From an uncultured Candidatus Babeliaceae bacterium (GTDB lineage Bacteria > Babelota > Babeliae > Babelales > Babelaceae), in assembly GCA_963704655.1 (NCBI GenBank), contig OY969927.1:96001-160000 (forward strand): a stretch of DNA of 64,000 nt. Reading direction: 5' to 3'. The number at the start of each line of letters is the position of its first letter. Position 1 is the first letter of the stretch. Below are positions 5,146 through 53,762 of this stretch, in pieces. A program made the position numbers and the translations under genes. The notes below the pieces were generated by a model, which saw only the letters and a program-made list of their open reading frames with translations, searched no databases and was not told the DNA's origin.

Positions 5146-5529
5146 ATGTCAAAGTCTATGGAAAATCTCGTAAAAGAAATTAGTGGTTTAACTGTTCTTG
5201 AACTTGCAGAATTAACAAAAGCACTAGAAACAGCCTTTGGTGTTTCTGCTGCTATGCCTATGGCTGCTGCAGCTCCTGCTGCTGAAGCTTCTGCAGGTAA
5301 GAAAGAAGAAGAAAAAACTGAGTTCAAAGTTGAATTAGTTGATGCTGGCGCAAATAAAATAAACGTTATTAAAGCGTTACGTCAAGTGAAAAAAGATCTT
5401 GGTTTAACTGAAGCTAAAAAAATGGCAGAAGAAACTCCTTCTGTTATTGCTGAAGCAGCTTCTAAAGATGAAGCTAAAGTTATGAAAGAAACACTTGAAG
5501 CAGCTGGTGCTAAAGTTAAACTTTCATAA
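5146..5529 (+). CDS. rplL: 50S ribosomal protein L7/L12
   Basis: LTVLELAEL, Ala-rich hinge, EKTEF, LGLTEAK. Confidence 0.98.
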   Translation: MSKSMENLVKEISGLTVLELAELTKALETAFGVSAAMPMAAAAPAAEASAGKKEEEKTEFKVELVDAGANKINVIKALRQVKKDLGLTEAKKMAEETPSVIAEAASKDEAKVMKETLEAAGAKVKLS

Positions 5530-5612
5530 TTGCCTAAGTTAAATTACTTAGCTTTTATAATATAGCGTGTTGATGGTTGCATATAATTTTTTGTAGTACA
5601 AGGAGCAGCTTA

Positions 5613-14058
<8,446 letters not shown>

Positions 14059-38635: not shown

Positions 38636-39781
38636 TTATCTTAAAAATTTTTTGAAAAAAGCGGTTATCGAACCCTGCGCGCCATTGGTTTTGGTGCCAA
38701 TAAGTTCAGAGTATTTCTCTAAAGACTCTTGCGCATCAGAAGGCAACTTTTTAGGGATATCACATTGCGTGGTGATAACTAAATTGCCGCGACCTTTGCC
38801 ACGAATTTTAGGAAACCCTTTACCAGCAATAATAATACGTTCGCCAATTGGGCAGCCACGTGGAACCTTGATCGTCTCTTTTTCGCCATCTAAGGTCTCA
38901 ATATCCATTTGGCAGCCAAAAACAAGCTGTGGATAAGTAAGGGTAATAGCAGATTCAAGGTCATCATCAACGCGTTTGAACTGTTTATGAGGCATAACAG
39001 CTATTTTTAAAAACAAGTCGCCATACTCGCCGCCAAAGATACCAGCATCACCTTTGCCAGCAATGCGCAATTCTGCGCCGTCATAAATCCCTGCTGGGAT
39101 ATTAACGCTCACGGTGTCATATTTTTGAATACGTGATTGGCCTTTACATGCTTTGCATGGTGAAGGTATCGTGTATCCAAGCCCCTGACAATTTGAACAG
39201 GGCTGTGAGTAAGCAAACATACCTTGTCTAAAGGTTGTTTGGCCGCTTCCGTCACATTCTTTACATGCGTGCGCAGTTGTGCCTTTTTCAGCAGCTTTGC
39301 CGTCACAGGTGGTACAAACCACGAAATGGTAGTAAGTAATATCTTTTTTAACCCCTTTGAATGATTCTTCAAAGGTAAGGGTGACTTCTTTTGCTAAATC
39401 ATGACCACGTTTAGGTGTAGGTCCAGATTTTTTACGTCTTTTTTGTTGCGCCCCGCCGCCAAAGATATCGCCAAACATATCAAAGATGTTTTCCATATTA
39501 ACATCTTGGCCCTGGCCAAATCCATTAAAACCACCAAAGCCTTGCCCGCCGCCCATATCAGCGCCAGCGTGGCCAAATTGGTCGTACTGTTTTCGTTTGG
39601 TAGCATCTGAAAGGACTTCATAAGCACCCGAGACTTCTTTAAAGCTTTCTTCGGCCGCTTTGTTGCCGGGGTTACGATCTGGGTGATATTTTAAGGCAAG
39701 CTTGCGGTATGCAGCTTTGATATCTTCTTGTGATGCTGAACGTTGAACACCAAGTATTTCGTAAAAATCTTTTTGAGCCAT
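38636..39781 (-). CDS. dnaJ: Chaperone DnaJ
   Basis: J-domain HPD, G/F region, four CxxCxG(x)G-type repeats. Confidence 0.98.
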
Positions 39782-39832: not shown

Positions 39833-39912
39833 CCCGTTGTGTCATCCCGGACTTGATCCGGGATCTTATCCGTTTACAAAGAGACCCTGAAACGAGCTCA
39901 GGGTGACACGGG
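39833..39912. repeat. Palindromic REP/MITE-like element
   Basis: Outer stem GTGTCATCCC/GGGTGACAC enclosing inner hairpins ATCCCGGA..TCCGGGAT and CCCTGA..TCAGGG. Confidence 0.75.
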
Positions 39913-39933
39913 ATAATATCTCTATAATTCTAA

Positions 39934-39959
39934 CGCTTTTTGGAATTTTGAGCAATCGG
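39934..39959 (-). repeat. Duplicated 3' end of the epimerase gene (att-like; partner at 40784..40809)
   Basis: CGCTTTTTG(G/A)AATTTTGAGCAATCGG, 25/26 identical; this copy reads DCSKFQKALEL* on the minus strand. Confidence 0.85.
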
Positions 39960-40077
39960 TGCACGAACAGGAAAATTTATCACTTTTCGATATTATATAA
40001 AAATAGCAATTTGCAGTATCAGAAGCCCATAATGAGGCGAAAAGTTAGGTAAAATCCCTATAAAGTAGATAAAACTC

Positions 40078-40106
40078 TTGATTTTACCCCCCCCCCATGA
40101 TAAATT
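40078..40106 (+). promoter_or_regulatory. Putative sigma70 promoter with a C10 homopolymer in the spacer
   Basis: TTGATT - 17 nt (containing C10 at 40087-40096) - TAAATT, with TGn; 50 nt upstream of the ATG at 40156. Confidence 0.55.
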
Positions 40107-40155
40107 CATAATAGTAATATAATTAATATAATTAAATCTAAAAAAAGGAGATACT

Positions 40156-40725
40156 ATGAAAAATCGAATAATTATTTTACTATCGTTTACTTTCTTATCA
40201 TCAGCGATGGCGCTTACACAGGTTGATTTTAAAAAACTTGATGAGATTGTCAAAGAATCTGTAGCAAATCCATCTAAGAATCAAAGAAAATATAATAATC
40301 TTTGGGAGGATGGTGTTCTTACGGTAAAGGGTCTAAATTATGATGCTTTAGTGCAGTTAATTCAGGCCAATGCCGATACTCGTACTCCGAGGAGTGATTT
40401 GAAGGCTTTACGTTCTATGATTGAAGGGCAATGTAATTCATTAGGATTTACAGGCAGACTAATAAAAACATATATAAAAGGTGATAATAAGAAACAACAA
40501 ATCTGCTATATGTGCCGCAACTATTGGGAAAATGCAGCTAAGTACGATACAGAATTAAGGCTTGCAACCTTTTCTTTTAAAAATCCGAATTCATCAATTA
40601 TTCATCCTAAGGCTTACGAATATGTTTGTGGTAGTTTACCTCTGGCAAGCGAAGCTGTTAATGATGAGTCTGAGCGCGAACTTACAGCTCAGGAACAAGC
40701 TGATTTAGCACAAATCACCGCTTAA
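40156..40725 (+). CDS. Exported hypothetical protein
   Basis: AAGGAG RBS; signal peptide ...SAMA. Confidence 0.8.
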   Translation: MKNRIIILLSFTFLSSAMALTQVDFKKLDEIVKESVANPSKNQRKYNNLWEDGVLTVKGLNYDALVQLIQANADTRTPRSDLKALRSMIEGQCNSLGFTGRLIKTYIKGDNKKQQICYMCRNYWENAAKYDTELRLATFSFKNPNSSIIHPKAYEYVCGSLPLASEAVNDESERELTAQEQADLAQITA

Positions 40726-40742
40726 AATTAAGAAACATAAAC

Positions 40743-40773
40743 AAAAAAAGGCCCCGAAATTTCGGGGCCTTTT
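40743..40773. terminator. Bidirectional intrinsic terminator
   Basis: AAAAGGCCCCGAA-AT-TTCGGGGCCTTTT between convergent genes. Confidence 0.85.
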
Positions 40774-40774
40774 G

Positions 40775-41668
40775 CTATAAAAGCGCTTTTTGAAATTTTG
40801 AGCAATCGGCCTGCGAATGCTTAATGTCACCAGGGCGATCTGGCAGGTAAGATACTGGTTGTTGATATTCTGGATGCTGCTGCAAAAGTTCTTCAAGTTT
40901 AGATTGCAGGGTGATGCTCGTGCCCGTTGCGATATTAAATGGCTGGCCGTCAGCATAACGTGCATTAAGCATGCCAGCTTTTAATGTTGCTTTGACAACG
41001 TCATTAACATGAATAAAATCCCGTGTTTGTTGGCCATCACCAAATATCGTTATAGGCTCATTATTAACTATTTTATGGTTCAATACTGCTACAACGCCAC
41101 CATTGCCTGCGGCATGGTTTTGGCGCGGGCCGTAGACATTGAAATAACGTAAACAAACGGTTTCAAGTTCATAGCAGTTTGCGTATAGTTGGCAGAGTTC
41201 TTCGCCAAGTTTTTTTGAATATCCGTAGGTCGAGACGGGGTTAGTTTGAGTTTCTTCTGTGCAAAGGCCCTCATGGTTACCGTAAACGGCCGCGGAAGAG
41301 GCAAAAATTACCCGCTGGCAACCGTTTAGCCTGGCTGCTTCAAGAATATGCGCCGAACCTTGAACATTCGTTTCTAGGCAAAAATGGGGGTTGTTTTGGC
41401 TTGCCGCCACAGAAACTACTGCCGCAAGATGAAAAACGGTCTCTATTTCTTGGCAGGCCTGTACCGCAGTATGAATATCGGTAACAGAGCCGTGTATGAA
41501 TTCGATATCAGCTTTTATGGCATCAAGGTTTGCATATGAACCGGTTTCCATATTGTCTAAAACGCGGACATATGCGCCAAGAGCAACTAATTTTTCACAC
41601 AGGTGCGAGCCTATAAACCCTGCGCCTCCGGTTACTAATACCATTCTTTTTTTATAAAAGTTTTCCAT
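40775..41668 (-). CDS. NAD-dependent epimerase/dehydratase (extended SDR)
   Basis: TGGAGFIGSH, SSAAVYG, YGYSK, LRYFNVYGP, GDGQQTRDF. Confidence 0.93.
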   Translation of the reverse strand: MENFYKKRMVLVTGGAGFIGSHLCEKLVALGAYVRVLDNMETGSYANLDAIKADIEFIHGSVTDIHTAVQACQEIETVFHLAAVVSVAASQNNPHFCLETNVQGSAHILEAARLNGCQRVIFASSAAVYGNHEGLCTEETQTNPVSTYGYSKKLGEELCQLYANCYELETVCLRYFNVYGPRQNHAAGNGGVVAVLNHKIVNNEPITIFGDGQQTRDFIHVNDVVKATLKAGMLNARYADGQPFNIATGTSITLQSKLEELLQQHPEYQQPVSYLPDRPGDIKHSQADCSKFQKALL

Positions 41669-41761
41669 TTTTCTACCCGCTTTATTAATACTCTTCTGCA
41701 CAGTAGATATAGAATTAATTATTCAAAAAGTCGAGCCTGCTTAGATATATGTGTGATGTGT

Positions 41762-48073: not shown

Positions 48074-48200
48074 AACCCTTGCGTAAGCTCAGGATGAGCG
48101 GTAATACTACTTGCTCCGCCGAAGTGTCGGGATGAGCGAGTAGACTGGCCTGCCATCTGTAGCTTGCCAAGCCGGAAGGCATGGATAAGCGCAGGATGGT
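48074..48200. repeat. Cluster of REP-like elements (families A and B) downstream of gyrB
   Basis: 48141-48200 is the reverse complement of the element at 1775; GGATGAGCG motifs at 48074-48101 and 48127-48138. Confidence 0.8.
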
Positions 48201-50582
48201 TAAATATCAAGGTTTTTGACAAAGTGGCCATTCTCTTCGATAAATGATTTTCTGCCGGTAACATCATCACCCATAAGAGTGTCAAACCAAGCGTCAGCTT
48301 CTAATGCATCACCGATAGTTACTTGGAGTAACTGACGACGGGTGATGTCCATAGACGTTTCCCACAACTGTTCTGGGTTCATCTCTCCAAGACCTTTATA
48401 GCGTTGGATGGTCATGTATGGTTTGCTGATTTTTGAAATGGCAGTAATAAGTTCAAGGATGGAGTTACCTGAAATAGTTTTTTCTCTGTCAGATATAGCT
48501 AGTGTCCACGGGTTACTTAAAATAGCAACTTTTTGACGGGCATCTTCAAGCTTTTCTGTTTCAATGCTGGTGAAGAAGTCTGAAGCAACTTCCCATGGCT
48601 TATGCATATAGGTTAATACGATTTGATCAACTGGAATACCTTCAGTATGTCTAATGCTGATTTCATATTTAGGTAAAAATGCTCTTATTTTTTCAACAAG
48701 TTCTTGCGTAGTAAGCGTTTGACCACGAACTGCATTATAGGCAGACATAAGCATCATGATCTGTTCATAGTTTAATTTAAACTTGAACGAGATAATCTCA
48801 AGCTGTTCCTCAAAGAGTTTTACTAAATCAAGAATTGCATGCCATGCAGGAGTTTCAAGTGTTTTTGATTCTGCGATAAGTTTGGTATTTTCACGTGCCC
48901 ATTCGATTAAAAACTGCTTAAGGGCCTTTTCATCTTTAAGATATTGCTCTTTTTTACCGATCTTTGCTTTAAATAATGGCGGTTGCGCGATATAAAGATA
49001 CCCGGTTTCAACCAGTGGCTTCATATATCTATAAAAGAACGTTAATAAAAGGGTTCTGATATGTGAACCGTCAACGTCAGCATCGGTCATTAAGATAATT
49101 TTATGATAACGTGTTTTTTCTAGATTAAATTCGTCATTAGTCAACACCGCTGCCAATGGCTGCAATAAGTGATTTGATCTCTTCGTTTGCAAGAATTTTA
49201 TCTAAGCGTGCTTTTTCTACGTTTAAGATTTTACCGCGAATGGGCAAAATTGCTTGCGTAAATCTATCACGAGCTTGTTTTGCAGATCCGCCTGCAGAAT
49301 CACCTTCTACAATGAAAAGTTCGGTTTTAGATGGATCTTCTGTTGAGCAGTCTGCTAATTTACCCGGTAAAATAGTAGATTCAAGAACCGTTTTTCTGCG
49401 TGTTAATTCACGTGCTTTTTTTGCAGCATCGCGTGCACGCATGGCAAGTTCAGCTTTTTGTAAAATCTTACGTGCGATTTGAGGGTTTTCTTCAAAATAG
49501 GTATCAAGAAATGCAAAGACCCAAGATTCTACAAGGCCCTTAACTTCGCTATTGCCAAGTTTTGCTTTTGTTTGACCTTCAAATTGCGGCTCAGCAACTT
49601 TGATATTGATAACGCAGACAAGTCCTTCACGAACATCTTCACTTGAAAATGAGTCTGTGCCTTTAAGGATATTAAACTCTTGTGCGCGACGGTTACATGC
49701 TTTGGTTAATGCGCCTTTAAAGCCGGCAACGTGTGTACCGCCTTCAGTCGTGTTAATATTATTTACAAAAGAGTAAAGTTGTTCGCCATAACCTTCATTA
49801 TATTGTAAGGCAACCTCAAGAAGATTTTGTTCATCTTCTTTAAACATGTATAAGATATCTGGAAATATTGGCGTCTTTTTTGAATTAATATATTCAATAA
49901 AAGAAACAATACCGCCCTCAAAATAAAACTCATGGCTTTTGTTAGTGCGTTCATCAAAGATAGTAATGCGTAAGCCTTTGTTTAAAAACGCAAGTTCTCT
50001 AAGACGCGCAGAAAGAGTATCGAAATTAAATTCGACTGTTTCTTTAAATATTAAAGGATCGGGTTTAAAGCGAACAAATGTTCCACGTTTAGCGGTTGTT
50101 CCCGTTTCATGCAACAGATCAAGCGGATTTCCGCGGGCATAGTCCTGGTCAAAGATTTTGCCATTTCTAAAAATGGTAAGATGTAATGATTCAGAAAGTG
50201 CGTTAACTACCGAGACACCCACGCCATGTAGCCCGCCAGAAAACTTATAGGTATCTTTGTCAAACTTACCGCCGGCATGTAATTTAGTTAAGGCAACTTG
50301 TGCAGCAGATACGCCTTCTGTTGGGTGGATATCAGTTGGGATACCGCGGCCGTTATCTTCAACAGAGCAGCTACCATCTTCGTGTAATATCACGGTAACG
50401 GTGTTACAATAACCGGCAAGCGCTTCATCAACCGAGTTGTCTACGATTTCGTAAACAAGGTGATGTAGGCCTTGCGGTCCGGTGGAACCGATATACATAG
50501 CAGGACGTTTACGTACCGCTTCTAAACCTTCTATAACACGAATCGACTGTGCTGAATATTCTTTTTCGTTCGGGTTGGACAT
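48200..50582 (-). CDS. gyrB: DNA gyrase subunit B with one frameshift near 49140 (probable error)
   Basis: EAVRKRPAMYIG, LHAGGKF, IVEGDSAGG, MTDADVDGSHI, QRYKGLGEMN; removing one base at ~49140 gives GVDNDEF in frame. Confidence 0.95.
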
Positions 50583-50710
50583 GGCGGTGCCTCCTTAAGA
50601 CTAAAACTTGAGCATGGAATAATTTTTGTTTAAGCTACTATATTTGTATGCTTATTTACTAGTATTTAAGTATACTCTATACTACAGTTTTTTCTATGGC
50701 AGCCTTGCGT

Positions 50711-50927
50711 GTGTCATCCTGATAGTTCGAAAAATTCACTACTAAAGACCCGCCTGTCAGCCGCCGCTCGTGATGAGTACTTCGACTTTGCTCAGCATGA
50801 ACCCAGCGGAGCCTGCCCTCCGTAGCCCTTCGGCAAGCTCAGGAGTAAACCCGAGGCGTAGGCTGGGTCGAATTCATGGAGAAGGCTGGGAACTCGTTGG
50901 TGTGCCAGCGCACTGCTTTAGGATCTC
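50711..50927. repeat. GC-rich cluster of nested palindromic/REP-like motifs
   Basis: GTGTCATCCTGA...AGGATCTC ends enclosing CTTCGACTTTGCTCAG, CCTGCCCTCCGTAGC and CCCTTCGGCAAGCTCAGG, which are related to the other intergenic repeats. Confidence 0.55.
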
Positions 50928-50954
50928 TTGCGCTAGCAAACCGACTCTTATTTT

Positions 50955-51380
50955 CTATGGTAGTTTAATCAGGTTTAATATGGTGCCCATTACATGCTGA
51001 TGCTTAATTACATCATTGCAGATTAGTTGTGCTAAGATTCTGTTGTACTGGTGGGTGGTTTTATTGCGAGCATCGGCTAACTGCATAAGCTCATTAACAA
51101 GATCTTCTGGTAGTAACTTATATTTATAGCAGGCACGGAATGTTTCTCTTGGAGAAGCCACCTCAATCTCGTGACGCGCTTCAAGATATTGTTTTAAAAA
51201 TTTCCAGAGCGTCTCGTAGGCAAGTTCGAAATGTTGAATAACTCCAGAAGAAAGCAGATCTGCAACATCGCTGTCGTCGCCTTCTTTTTCCATAAGCCTC
51301 TGTTGAGTTTTTATGGCTCGACTAAGTGCTTCATAAGCTTGATGAAAATTTATATATTTTTTATCAAGATCATTTACCAT
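50955..51380 (-). CDS. HEPN-domain protein (HI0074-like; putative toxin)
   Basis: GVIQHFELAYE, SPRETFR, RNKTTH (Rx4H). Confidence 0.9.
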   Translation of the reverse strand: MVNDLDKKYINFHQAYEALSRAIKTQQRLMEKEGDDSDVADLLSSGVIQHFELAYETLWKFLKQYLEARHEIEVASPRETFRACYKYKLLPEDLVNELMQLADARNKTTHQYNRILAQLICNDVIKHQHVMGTILNLIKLP

Positions 51381-51658
51381 AAAATTCCCGTCAGGATAAT
51401 GTGATCCTTCATGTCTTTGTCAACTGCCTGGAGATCTATGAGATCTACCTCTTGCGCCATGGGCAATGCATTAAGCAAATTCCAGAGAAATTGCTGTTCA
51501 TGTATATCTAATCTAAAGCCAACGTCGATGGCGATATCGACATCTGAACCAAGTTTGTTTCTATTTTGGGCATAAGAGCCGAAAAGATAAATCGCAGCTT
51601 GTGGGTAGAAAGCTCTGATTATTTTTATAATGGCGTCTTTTTGTGGAGTTTCTGACAT
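51374..51658 (-). CDS. Minimal nucleotidyltransferase (MNT; putative antitoxin)
   Basis: LFGSYA...SDVDIA...VDLID. Confidence 0.9.
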   Translation of the reverse strand: MSETPQKDAIIKIIRAFYPQAAIYLFGSYAQNRNKLGSDVDIAIDVGFRLDIHEQQFLWNLLNALPMAQEVDLIDLQAVDKDMKDHIILTGILW

Positions 51659-51741
51659 ACTTTTTATAGGTTAAAGTGTTTTTTACATGATATCTTATTT
51701 TATACTGAGTAAGCAAATATTTATTATTGAAGGGGGCGCAT

Positions 51742-52155
51742 ATGATTTATGCCATTGCTTTTTTATATTCAGGAAACTCTGTTCTTTTAGTTCGCCGCTG
51801 TAATGCTGCATATGGAAACTGTTTATACTCGCTTGTTGGTGGCAAGGTCGAGCCGGGCGAGTCTGGCATTCCTGCCCTTATCCGTGAAGTTAAAGAAGAA
51901 GTTGATATAGATCTTACCGAACATGATCTTGAATTTGTGCATGTGCTGCATAGAAAAGGAACAGAATCAGAATTTATCGCACTCTGTTTTAAAGCTGATA
52001 TTACGGGCAAGCCATTTAGAAATGTCGAGCCAGAAAAGCATGACGATATACAGCTTTTCCCTTTGGATAATCTGCCTGCAAATATTCTCCCTGCGCATAA
52101 GCAGATTATAGAAGCAATTTCTAAAAAACAGCTCTATTCTGAGCACGGCTGGTAA
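51742..52155 (+). CDS. NUDIX hydrolase
   Basis: Nudix box GGKVEPGESGIPALIREVKEEVDI; NVEPEKH. Confidence 0.92.
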   Translation: MIYAIAFLYSGNSVLLVRRCNAAYGNCLYSLVGGKVEPGESGIPALIREVKEEVDIDLTEHDLEFVHVLHRKGTESEFIALCFKADITGKPFRNVEPEKHDDIQLFPLDNLPANILPAHKQIIEAISKKQLYSEHGW

Positions 52156-52171
52156 ATAAAAAGGAGATTTT

Positions 52172-52618
52172 ATGAAAAAAATATTTTGTTTGATTTTTTT
52201 AATAACGCCACTTTTTGGTGGAATGAAAAAGTACAGTAGAGCATATCTTTATAGTATTAGGACTACTGTCGCAAGAGGCAAATCGCCGGATCAGGCTTTT
52301 GATTTCATATTATCTAAACTTTGGCTTCCCTCAGATGCAGATCACTATGAAAATATCCCTGAAGCTATTGTAGCATTGAAAGGTTTTAAAACTGTTGTTG
52401 AGGCGTATCGCCAAAAAAACGATAAAGCCCTTTGTTCCGATTTATCACATGGCGCAAAGCCCTTAAGCGATTCATTTGATCAAGTAAAAGAGTTAAAAGA
52501 TCCATTTGATAAGGTAGAGCGCTTAATAGATGGTATGAACTCTAAAAGGACATATCTCGAGTCTAAAAAAGAGTCTGAAAATGAATACGAAGGTTTTTTA
52601 AGTTGGCTTTTTAAGTAA
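52172..52618 (+). CDS. Exported hypothetical protein
   Basis: AAGGAG RBS; MKKIFCLIFLITPLFG signal peptide; amphipathic end GFLSWLFK. Confidence 0.8.
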   Translation: MKKIFCLIFLITPLFGGMKKYSRAYLYSIRTTVARGKSPDQAFDFILSKLWLPSDADHYENIPEAIVALKGFKTVVEAYRQKNDKALCSDLSHGAKPLSDSFDQVKELKDPFDKVERLIDGMNSKRTYLESKKESENEYEGFLSWLFK

Positions 52619-52646
52619 TTTACTCATGATCTTGGGGCTATTTTTA

Positions 52647-52679
52647 AAAAAACAGCTCTATTCTGAGCACGGCTGGTAA
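52647..52679 (+). repeat. Duplicated 3' end of the NUDIX gene (att-like; partner at 52123..52155)
   Basis: AAAAAACAGCTCTATTCTGAGCACGGCTGGTAA, 33/33 identical, including the stop codon. Confidence 0.92.
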
Positions 52680-52772
52680 TTTTTATAGCAAAAAGCTCTC
52701 TTTTCTTGTAAAGTATTCTTTCTTCAGGCAATACTTACTAAGTTACATAAAGCACGAAAGTTAAAAAAATAT

Positions 52773-53252
52773 ATGGCATTACTTAAAGAACAGCCCTTTT
52801 TTGAGCATGATCTAGAGTATATGAGGCAGGCATACGATCTTGCTTTAAAGGCATTCGAGCTGGGCGAGGTTCCCGTAGGTGCCGTTGTTGTAGATGCTAG
52901 TGGAAATATTCTTGGTCTTGGTTATAATAGAACCGAAATTGAAAAGTGCCAAAATGCCCATGCAGAGGCATTTGCCATAAAAAGTGCGTGTGAAAAGTTG
53001 CATGATTGGCGGCTTGAAGGTTGCACGCTTTATGTAACACTTCAACCTTGTATGATCTGTTACGGACTTTCTGCGCTCAGCAGGATTGAACGTATAGTAT
53101 ACGGTGCTGTTTCCCCTCTTTATGGGTTTCATATTGACACCAAAGATCTACCTGGGGTATACGTTAAGCACACTAAATTTTTTTCGTCAGGAGTGATGAA
53201 AGATGAAATTGAAGCGTTATTGAAGCAATTTTTCAAAGAGATGCGAAAATAA
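52773..53252 (+). CDS. tadA: tRNA adenosine(34) deaminase
   Basis: GEVPVGAVVV, AHAE, WRLEGCTLYVTLQPCMIC. Confidence 0.92.
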   Translation: MALLKEQPFFEHDLEYMRQAYDLALKAFELGEVPVGAVVVDASGNILGLGYNRTEIEKCQNAHAEAFAIKSACEKLHDWRLEGCTLYVTLQPCMICYGLSALSRIERIVYGAVSPLYGFHIDTKDLPGVYVKHTKFFSSGVMKDEIEALLKQFFKEMRK

Positions 53253-53264
53253 GCAGGAGAGAGT

Positions 53265-53603
53265 ATGAATAATAATTATGATAAAATGAAACAAAAGCTT
53301 TTGGAACGCAAAAAAGAGCTTGAAGAGCTTTTAAAAGGTCTCTCGGAAGAAAAAGTTACCGATACCGAAGTTCAAGATCCGGGTGACCAAGCCGCTGCTG
53401 CAACTTCTGAAGATATCATTATTTCTATTCAGGCTAATGAATATGAAGAATTTCGCATGATCACTAAGGCTTTAAAGGCCATAGAAGATGGTACGTATGG
53501 TGCGTGCATGGACTGTGGGAATCCAATAGCTGAAAAAAGGCTTTTGTTATACCCTAATGCTACCAGATGCATTACCTGTCAAGAGGCTGCTGAAGAGCGG
53601 TAA
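53265..53603 (+). CDS. DksA/TraR C4 zinc-finger protein
   Basis: Coiled coil with DPGD tip; YGACMDCG...RL...CITC. Confidence 0.9.
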   Translation: MNNNYDKMKQKLLERKKELEELLKGLSEEKVTDTEVQDPGDQAAAATSEDIIISIQANEYEEFRMITKALKAIEDGTYGACMDCGNPIAEKRLLLYPNATRCITCQEAAEER

Positions 53604-53686
53604 TCCAGCTTTTTATTGCTTAGGTGCCATAATAATAAAATGGGGGTTTGTAGAAAAAATCCATTCTGATATACTTGGAAGGTGTT

Positions 53687-53762
<76 letters not shown>

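Follow-up and report, generated by a model that had tools for sequence, protein, structure and literature searches.

How does a gene without relatives come to lie directly behind a NUDIX hydrolase gene, enclosed by two copies of that gene's own end? The question is raised by a locus in an uncultured Candidatus Babeliaceae bacterium (assembly GCA_963704655.1, contig OY969927.1), of which a stretch of 64,000 nucleotides (nt), genome positions 96001-160000, was analysed and is called the window here. The sequence AAAAAACAGCTCTATTCTGAGCACGGCTGGTAA is present at positions 52123-52155 and 52647-52679 of the window, 33 of 33 positions being identical at a spacing of 524 bp. This is the perfect 33-bp duplication of the NUDIX 3' end, stop codon included, which a preliminary description of this DNA had reported. 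With modest confidence, we read the repeat as the scar of a homology-anchored, one-sided insertion ('3'-end displacement').

The first copy (52123..52155, + strand; sequence and repeat search) forms the working last 10 codons and the TAA of the NUDIX gene (51742..52155, +; PF00293, E 1.4e-16), which is the target and was left intact. Translation probably begins with the ATG at 51742, which follows GAAGGGGG; a TTG at 51727 opens the listed open reading frame (ORF). The second copy (52647..52679, +) is a displaced, non-coding relic of the same 3' end, continuous with the native downstream spacer. In a repeat search, the match lengthened to 38 nt at 95% identity, with two mismatches (52118-52155 and 52642-52679). 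In the whole genome of 1,298,077 bp, where the repeat lies near position 148123, the 33-mer was counted exactly twice with up to six mismatches tolerated, and was never found on the opposite strand. Short-range repeats with a score of at least 20 numbered 1140 in the real genome (293 of them isolated) against none in two block-shuffled genomes; since the shuffled genomes yielded no comparable repeats, the 33-bp repeat is not a chance match.

The inserted segment between the copies measures 491 bp (52156..52646, +) and has a G+C content of 33.8%, against 40.6% for the NUDIX gene. A single ORF of at least 45 amino acids (aa) is found on its + strand, the 148-aa ORF at 52172..52618 with an N-terminal hydrophobic segment, and the minus strand holds one ORF of 39 aa. 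An AAGGAG ribosome-binding site, read from the sequence, lies at 52161..52166 (+), 5 nt ahead of the ATG, in agreement with the description of a single gene with its own ribosome-binding site. The same description called this gene an exported orphan. The second word stands: the 148-aa ORF matched no Pfam family, had no second copy in the genome, found no relative among 5.8 billion proteins (size range 81-259 aa) and was found in none of 40 other family genomes, bar one match with E=0.009. Nothing was obtained from the ESM Atlas (top score 0.76), and the single-sequence AlphaFold2 model was poor and all-helical (predicted local distance difference test, pLDDT, 54). Export of this orphan ORF (ORFan) is predicted by eye from the N-terminal MKK and hydrophobic stretch. 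A pattern search showed no promoter-like or terminator-like pattern between NUDIX and tadA, which makes it probable that the ORFan is co-transcribed with the NUDIX gene. The insert carries no terminal inverted repeats, the longest inverted match between its ends being 7 nt, and no transposase, integrase or recombinase gene was found within it.

A tadA-anchored scan of metagenome contigs returned 64 loci. Only one of these, L143, was close (85% protein identity in tadA), the remaining full-length matches reaching at most 49%; a degenerate pattern for the NUDIX tail (QLYSEHGW followed by TAA) gave no matches in the metagenome scan. L143 comprises 1593 nt in the order gyrB, NUDIX, spacer, tadA, with a single copy of the repeat, and does not contain the inserted segment. 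Its NUDIX gene (717-1130, 137 aa) shares 80.7% DNA identity with that of the window. L143 positions 715-1132 align with 51740-52157 of the window and 1093-1593 with 52642-53140, so that the 40 nt at 1093-1132 match both repeat copies. The DNA past the L143 NUDIX stop is homologous to that past copy 2, which is the native NUDIX-tadA spacer (52680..52772, +). This alignment shows that the ancestor had one copy, that the ORFan segment was inserted, and that copy 2 is the one still tied to the native downstream DNA. The empty site in L143 proves the insertion, and the single-gene insertion at a gene 3' end that had been suggested for this locus is borne out.

The interval between gyrB and tadA is a variable spot among the genus relatives. 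Its conserved left flank is the N-terminal reading frame of gyrB (49137..50582, − strand; identified by comparison with relatives and L143) and its conserved right flank a tadA-type deaminase gene (52773..53252, +; Pfam and comparison with relatives), followed by a DksA-like gene, rpsI and glmS. To the left of NUDIX, before gyrB, lies an accessory toxin-antitoxin module identified by Pfam (50955..51658, −), composed of HEPN (50955-51380) and MNT (51374-51658). This pair is missing in L143 and in relative G003 and present in relative G002, where NUDIX and the ORFan are missing. In G003, a NUDIX remnant (the first 131 bp) is joined at approximately 52660, without the ORFan. G003 was rejected as empty-site evidence, given that an ancestor with or without the ORFan would give the same product after a deletion. 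Relative G004 has a RelE-like toxin gene, named by a look at the sequence only, ahead of tadA. This gene and its neighbour (G004:C4:36858-37351) are 73% identical to a segment of the present genome, G000:C1:1166127-1166605, which sits behind a relic of uvrB and includes a helix-turn-helix (HTH) gene (Pfam HTH_26); this identity indicates the same accessory module in different hotspots of sister species. The gyrB gene itself splits into two overlapping minus-strand frames, 49137-50582 and 48200-49192 (overlap 49137-49192). The first ends ...GSGVD* and the second carries on ...NDEFNLEKTRYHK, an apparent 1-nt frameshift at a place with no homopolymer, which in an essential gene may be an assembly error or real.

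Contigs of four public runs (X1-X4) were aligned to positions 50600-53700 of the window. Copy 1 is spanned by X1 record 3 (52045-52196, no differences), and copy 2 by X3 record 13 (52576-52722) and X4 record 16 (52434-52722), which come from two other studies and show two differences each. X1 and X2 may represent the source sample. Past 52722 the X3 and X4 records diverge; their loose ends are similar to the L143 spacer and overlap with X4 record 17 at its own loose start, as if both ran on into a diverged version of the native spacer. Up to 52722, ORFan and relic in X3 and X4 are 98.6-99.6% identical to the window (0.4-1.4% different), whereas their tadA and dksA pieces (records 14, 15, 17 and 18) are about 88-91% identical (approximately 9-12% different). 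The near-identity of the block beside diverged tadA and dksA pieces shows that the ORFan-relic block recently crossed between lineages about 10% apart. No excision joints, empty allele or circle were seen in the X1-X4 contigs, which at their low depth is evidence neither way.

The whole genome was scanned for isolated imperfect direct repeats with copies 120-4000 bp apart. Seventeen repeats were classed as a gene 3' end with an intergenic copy downstream; 12 of the 17, and two of other classes, share the layout of the NUDIX locus, in which one or two inserted genes separate a gene 3' end from a downstream copy of it. The 14 targets are NUDIX, an epimerase, RodA/FtsW, a PALP enzyme, UvrB, a SpoU methylase, DprA, GrpE, a 93-aa gene, ATP synthase alpha, BamA/Omp85, a GNAT-like gene, a PilB-type ATPase and a 132-aa gene, the GNAT-like gene being named from its C-terminal sequence and the other families from Pfam. 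Repeat lengths range from 22 to about 135 nt and the sequences are unrelated. At the 11 measurable loci, the similarity between the copies stops 0, 0, 0, 0, 0, 1, 2, 2, 2, 5 and 19 nt past the stop codon, that is, 0-2 nt beyond it at nine of them. Most of the cargo proteins are small and belong to no family, many of them beginning with an MKK-type hydrophobic stretch. The cargo also includes two MazE/PemK pairs and, at the grpE and pilB loci, two GIY-YIG genes; the label 'effector' given earlier to such cargo is not borne out. Five repeats were dropped: 920778, with no ORF of at least 45 aa, and four judged from the scan classification alone, namely 66617 (125-nt spacing), 474593 (20 nt, repeat-element-like), 620170 (a terminator hairpin) and 884239 (inside the SpoU case).

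The epimerase locus had been named before as another case with this layout, which it indeed shows. Its repeat is 26 nt long with one mismatch (39934-39959 and 40784-40809). The working copy (40784..40809, −) lies as a core of 26 nt within the 3' end of the epimerase gene (40775-41701); the gene now ends KALL*. The insert of 824 bp (39960..40783, +) holds a 189-aa ORFan at 40156-40725 (+), on the strand opposite to the epimerase gene, and a terminator-like hairpin, and is absent from all five genus relatives. The relic (39920..39959, −) retains the ancestral last codons (KALEL*) and stop, as in G004, and lies beside the native spacer before dnaJ (38636-39781); the distance between dnaJ and the epimerase gene is 20-97 nt in all five genus relatives. 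Empty sites were found in relatives at six of the 14 loci: NUDIX, epimerase, uvrB (G004 with a 6-nt gap, G003 with an 82-nt gap), rodA (G004), dprA (G003 and G001) and grpE (G003 and G005). This comparison covered the loci other than pilB; at atpA and SpoU, other DNA occupies the place in the relatives and the comparison was uninformative.

At rodA, dprA, grpE and uvrB of the present genome (G000), the relic has another strain-specific gene behind it, the expected leftover of repeated insertion at the same gene end. Relatives carry relics of their own. In G001, rodA has a relic of about 65-68 nt with a different cargo of 99 aa. G004 shows an array of bamA, a 138-aa gene, a 100-nt relic (93%), a 364-aa gene, a 65-nt relic (85%) and a MazE/PemK pair that is 79% identical to the pair directly behind bamA in G000. 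Two relics are thus stacked at bamA of G004 and none at the NUDIX locus, which has one relic. G004 further contains a 144-nt PALP relic and a 69-nt relic of the GNAT-like tail. With 14 loci, six with empty sites, and further relics in relatives, the general, sequence-flexible route that had been suspected from two cases is supported. The 144-nt PALP relic of G004:C5 (locus L142, reverse-complement 5434-6627) provides the last residues and stop of another ORF, by eye the C-terminal portion of a lactate/malate dehydrogenase. In this case the illegitimate joint seems to fall within a different gene.

The differences between the two copies bear on how they arose. Over 11 loci with 169 repeat codons, working tail and relic show 31 synonymous and nine non-synonymous differences. 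The synonymous share expected under random single-base change is 0.21 (binomial P=3.6e-14), and the observed 78% compares with about 35% calculated for a drifting relic and a selected working copy with an identical start. At grpE, the ratio of synonymous to non-synonymous differences is 5:0. Because the synonymous share is this high, most of the divergence arose at a time when the two copies ended working genes in separate lineages. The copies at the older, diverged loci are therefore two working alleles and not a decayed duplication. That they differ like functional alleles points away from site-specific integration and towards recombination in which the gene end served as the anchor for DNA from a diverged relative. 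Individual loci give some direction. At the epimerase, the relic is ancestral in retaining KALEL*; at uvrB, the relic shares five states with G003 and the working copy shares those positions with G004; at PALP and at dprA, the relic matches the relatives at three of four sites each. At SpoU (109 of 111), rodA and pilB, the copies are near-identical.

The sequence of events that we propose for the NUDIX locus starts from an ancestral order of gyrB, NUDIX and tadA with one copy of the 33-38 bp, as seen in L143. DNA of a related lineage, with the 148-aa gene directly behind its NUDIX stop, would recombine with the resident chromosome, the left side pairing by homology inside NUDIX and its 3' end. 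Homology would stop at the stop codon, where the donor has a different neighbour, and the right, non-homologous end would find an illegitimate joint in the resident DNA 33-38 nt before its stop codon, where there is a short A/T-rich microhomology (TTT..AAAAAA). NUDIX would in this way keep a complete tail (copy 1), and the new gene would use NUDIX transcription and its own ribosome-binding site. The resident tail would be shoved downstream as a non-coding relic (copy 2), still linked to the native spacer and tadA. A break near the gene end would explain the short relics; further upstream, leftover homology would let the repair end as gene conversion. Once finished, the block could spread to other strains through ordinary homologous recombination of the flanking DNA, as in X3 and X4, and the two copies could recombine with each other to remove it. 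The same kind of event would have taken place behind at least 13 other genes of this genome, sometimes more than once, giving arrays of gene, cargo, relic and older cargo. Genes consistent with these steps are encoded: RecA, DprA, a PilB-type ATPase and a full-length Ku homologue (G000:C1:1243857-1244390, 145 bits), of which the five genus relatives have only a fragment, in G001.

Two other routes are to be weighed. A Campbell-type integration of a small circle, in which a circularised NUDIX tail with the ORFan duplicates the 33-38 nt by a single crossover, is possible although unlikely; circle integration was among the routes that the preliminary description had named. The product is identical to that of a one-sided insertion, and the present sequence data do not separate the two; RecA is encoded, and the direct repeats could regenerate the circle. 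At rodA the order of rodA end, cargo, terminator copy, rodA relic, gene and terminator copy is what a two-flank circle leaves. The 33 bp lie at the bottom limit for a RecA-dependent crossover, however, and making a circle with only the gene tail would still require an illegitimate joint. The other route, doubtful to a somewhat greater degree, is a long target duplication made in place, when a staggered break or offset nicks approximately 33-38 nt apart are filled in and a foreign fragment is end-joined. The identical copies at NUDIX and the near-identical ones at SpoU, rodA and pilB suit it, as does the presence of Ku, but five of the 11 measured loci would need one cut exactly behind the stop codon, and the allelic synonymous bias of the diverged loci (0.78 observed against about 0.35 for relic drift) speaks against it.

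The remaining explanations are much weaker. The preliminary description had compared the layout to attachment (att) sites and looked to a trans-acting recombinase and a 524-bp circle. The repeat does resemble attL/attR at a gene 3' end, and two tyrosine recombinases and one large serine recombinase are encoded elsewhere in the genome. Yet the only PF00589 and PF00239 matches, at genome positions 389322, 530369 and 840799, are far from 148123, the insert and its immediate surroundings hold no recombinase, no joint left by an excision was observed, and the repeats of the 14 loci have no common core. A 10-mer, ATT[C/T]TGAGCA, shared by the NUDIX and epimerase repeats has a rough p of about 0.03 and is a post-hoc match, as is the 8-mer GAGCATAT, found in three repeats and 81 times in the genome against approximately 75 expected. 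No uptake-sequence-like 8-mer was prominent in the genome (best z 6.7). Inspection for an integron attC-like palindrome, made without an attC covariance model, showed no inverted repeat either inside the insert or at its ends, and no integrase nearby. For a transposon, the duplication is far longer than usual target duplications and not fixed in length, and the insert ends match in inverted orientation over only 7 nt. Site-specific integration, whether by att sites and an integrase, as an integron-like cassette, as an Xer/dif-type module or as a transposon, is accordingly very improbable. Hardly any weight can be given to a tandem second NUDIX gene whose 5' part was deleted or overwritten: NUDIX genes or fragments do stand in tandem in some family genomes (G001:C4, G012:C25, G018:C14), but L143 has one NUDIX followed by spacer and tadA, which refutes this origin here unless L143 cleanly lost a copy, and the same layout is shown by housekeeping genes that are single-copy here and lack a second copy in the relatives. 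An assembly artefact, an overlap of assembler-word size, is the least credible of all. A length of 33 is a usual k-mer size and the adjoining gyrB with its 1-nt frameshift shows an assembly that is not error-free, but contigs of other runs span both junctions, with copy 2 recovered in two further studies, the imperfect extension by 5 nt and the homology to the empty site have a biological origin, and 13 other loci have other repeat lengths.

Several observations weigh against the one-sided insertion that we prefer. The NUDIX copies are identical, so that donor and resident alleles are indistinguishable there and in-place duplication fits equally. Polarisation is mixed over the loci: at bamA and rodA the working copy, not the relic, matches the relatives. 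The donor arrangement, NUDIX followed by the ORFan with no relic, was not found. The left end of the tract shared with X3 and X4 was not recovered, the left part of the locus having no X3/X4 coverage. That one-sided recombination gives duplications and not deletions is itself inferred, and the available portions of the papers propose it for displacement arrays as an untested explanation. The ComEC-like frame of G000 holds two in-frame TAA codons, which makes present-day competence doubtful.

Some further repeats were noted. A mirror-image case at a 5' end, locus L028, has a 33-nt repeat (G000:C1:1118790-1118822 and 1119568-1119600), by which the start region of a gene that we take from its motif to be truA-like is repeated upstream of the preceding 233-aa gene; the latter is also present in G001 and G002. 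The scan also gave seven repeats classed as 5' end/intergenic and 25 as 5'/5', the last being neighbouring small genes with common start and signal-peptide regions. At locus L029, a putative whole 5S rRNA gene, recognised by eye, occurs twice, 850 bp apart (G000:C1:77280-77412 and 78130-78262), on either side of a single 180-aa gene. The order 5S-gene-5S is kept in G002, G003 and G001, which indicates that the arrangement is old. A putative tRNA 3' end, judged by its look, is present three times in 5.3 kb at locus L030, with small ORFs between (G000:C1:226077-226113, 226784-226820 and 231348-231370), a pattern typically left by integrative elements at tRNA genes. Short G+C-rich repeat elements of hairpin type adjoin several insertion sites (window 39839-39910 and 50811-50861; genome 1164781-1165043) and are multicopy in this genome and the genus relatives (28-40 nt at 90-100%).

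Insertions of this general kind have been described. Nobusato et al. are reportedly cited, with a paper of 2000, by Furuta and colleagues in connection with insertion with long target duplication. The NUDIX locus is another instance of that known mode.

Furuta et al. 2010 (PMC2853133) use 'insertion with long target duplication' for genes inserted between direct repeats of more than 30 bp, of which a related genome with the empty site has one. Further mobile-element genes are lacking, and the repeats often span a stop or start, the target gene remaining intact. The species were mostly naturally competent, the cargo consisted of restriction-modification genes, and DNA breakage was suggested as the cause. 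The NUDIX insert is alike in its repeats of more than 30 bp (33 perfect, 38 at 95%), in the empty site of L143, in having no mobility gene and in a repeat that is not multicopy (two in the genome). It differs in having no restriction-modification cargo, a criterion that, as far as the excerpts go, belongs to their screen and not to the mechanism. The cargo here is a small ORFan, elsewhere in the genome toxin-antitoxin pairs and GIY-YIG genes as well, and 14 loci occur in 1.3 Mb. Two-allele copies, as found here at diverged loci, are unreported in the excerpted part of their account.

Anchored displacement has its own precedents in toxin genes. The displacement of Rhs C-termini is reported to have been described by Jackson et al. 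in 2009, whom Kirchberger and colleagues cite.

Homology-facilitated illegitimate recombination with a conserved upstream anchor has been proposed for effector-immunity modules of the type VI secretion system (T6SS) of Vibrio cholerae (Kirchberger et al. 2017, PMC5361080). In the sections available, it explains displaced 3' ends and arrays of immunity genes, and the same idea is cited for the 'C-terminal displacement' of Rhs. The present loci share with these an upstream homologous anchor, an illegitimate far joint, an old 3' end shifted downstream and arrays (bamA of G004). There, anchoring relies on the constant region of a toxin or spike gene, and toxin tips with immunity genes are carried, whereas the anchors here are NUDIX and ordinary core genes (RodA, UvrB, GrpE, DprA, BamA, ATP synthase alpha) with unrelated small cargo. 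A third parallel comes from mitochondrial mobile ORF (mORF) hybrids, which in the portion available of Beaudet et al. 2013 (PMC3630166) consist of an inserted C-terminus, an endonuclease ORF and a relic of the native C-terminus, with Allomyces atp6 cited. A foreign C-terminal copy fused to the resident gene, followed by an ORF and a native relic, is the order proposed here. In the mORF hybrids, on that portion of the paper, the native relic is nearer to relatives than the inserted copy, which is so here at the epimerase, PALP and dprA, but not at bamA and rodA. Their insert encodes the driving endonuclease, while the NUDIX insert encodes none and GIY-YIG genes are found at only two of the 14 loci (grpE and pilB); the mORF system, as presented there, is organellar and not bacterial.

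As a last comparison, the gyrB-tadA interval is a spot of the kind occupied by the minimal mobile elements of Neisseria. These are small alternative cassettes between the same core genes, which are swapped by homologous recombination once DNA has been taken up. Both flanks take part in the swap, and no gene tail is left duplicated. In the literature searched, which did not cover subscription journals, no account was found of such scars behind core genes with cargo other than restriction-modification genes in bacteria, nor anything on direct-repeat insertion or competence in Dependentiae. Of interest here are the high frequency, the anchors in ordinary genes, the ORFan cargo and the finding that the 'duplication' is often two alleles.

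A wider reading can be offered tentatively, at low probability: gene 3' ends in this Dependentiae lineage would be landing pads of recurrent, break-driven cassette capture, an 'integron without an integrase'. Taken as a whole, it is a rather improbable conjecture that breaks at gene ends are repaired from the DNA of diverged relatives, with synthesis running past the donor stop. The breaks might come from small GIY-YIG nucleases with hairpin repeats, and Ku might seal the far end. If this were true, capture would be the main route by which secreted ORFans and toxin-antitoxin modules are interleaved with core genes in these protist-associated bacteria.

The result at the single NUDIX locus is ordinary, one more example whose cargo is a gene with no assigned function. 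Its meaning lies in the setting. Small host-associated genomes are full of ORFans between core genes, and their arrival is rarely visible; here the scars are preserved. A genome of 1.3 Mb shows 14 of them; empty sites are at hand, arrays are stacked, and sister species have had events of their own behind one and the same gene. The synonymous bias is a mechanistic clue that a 'long target duplication' can be two alleles united by one-sided recombination. A poorly understood mode of insertion thereby becomes testable by population genomics and in a transformable model organism.

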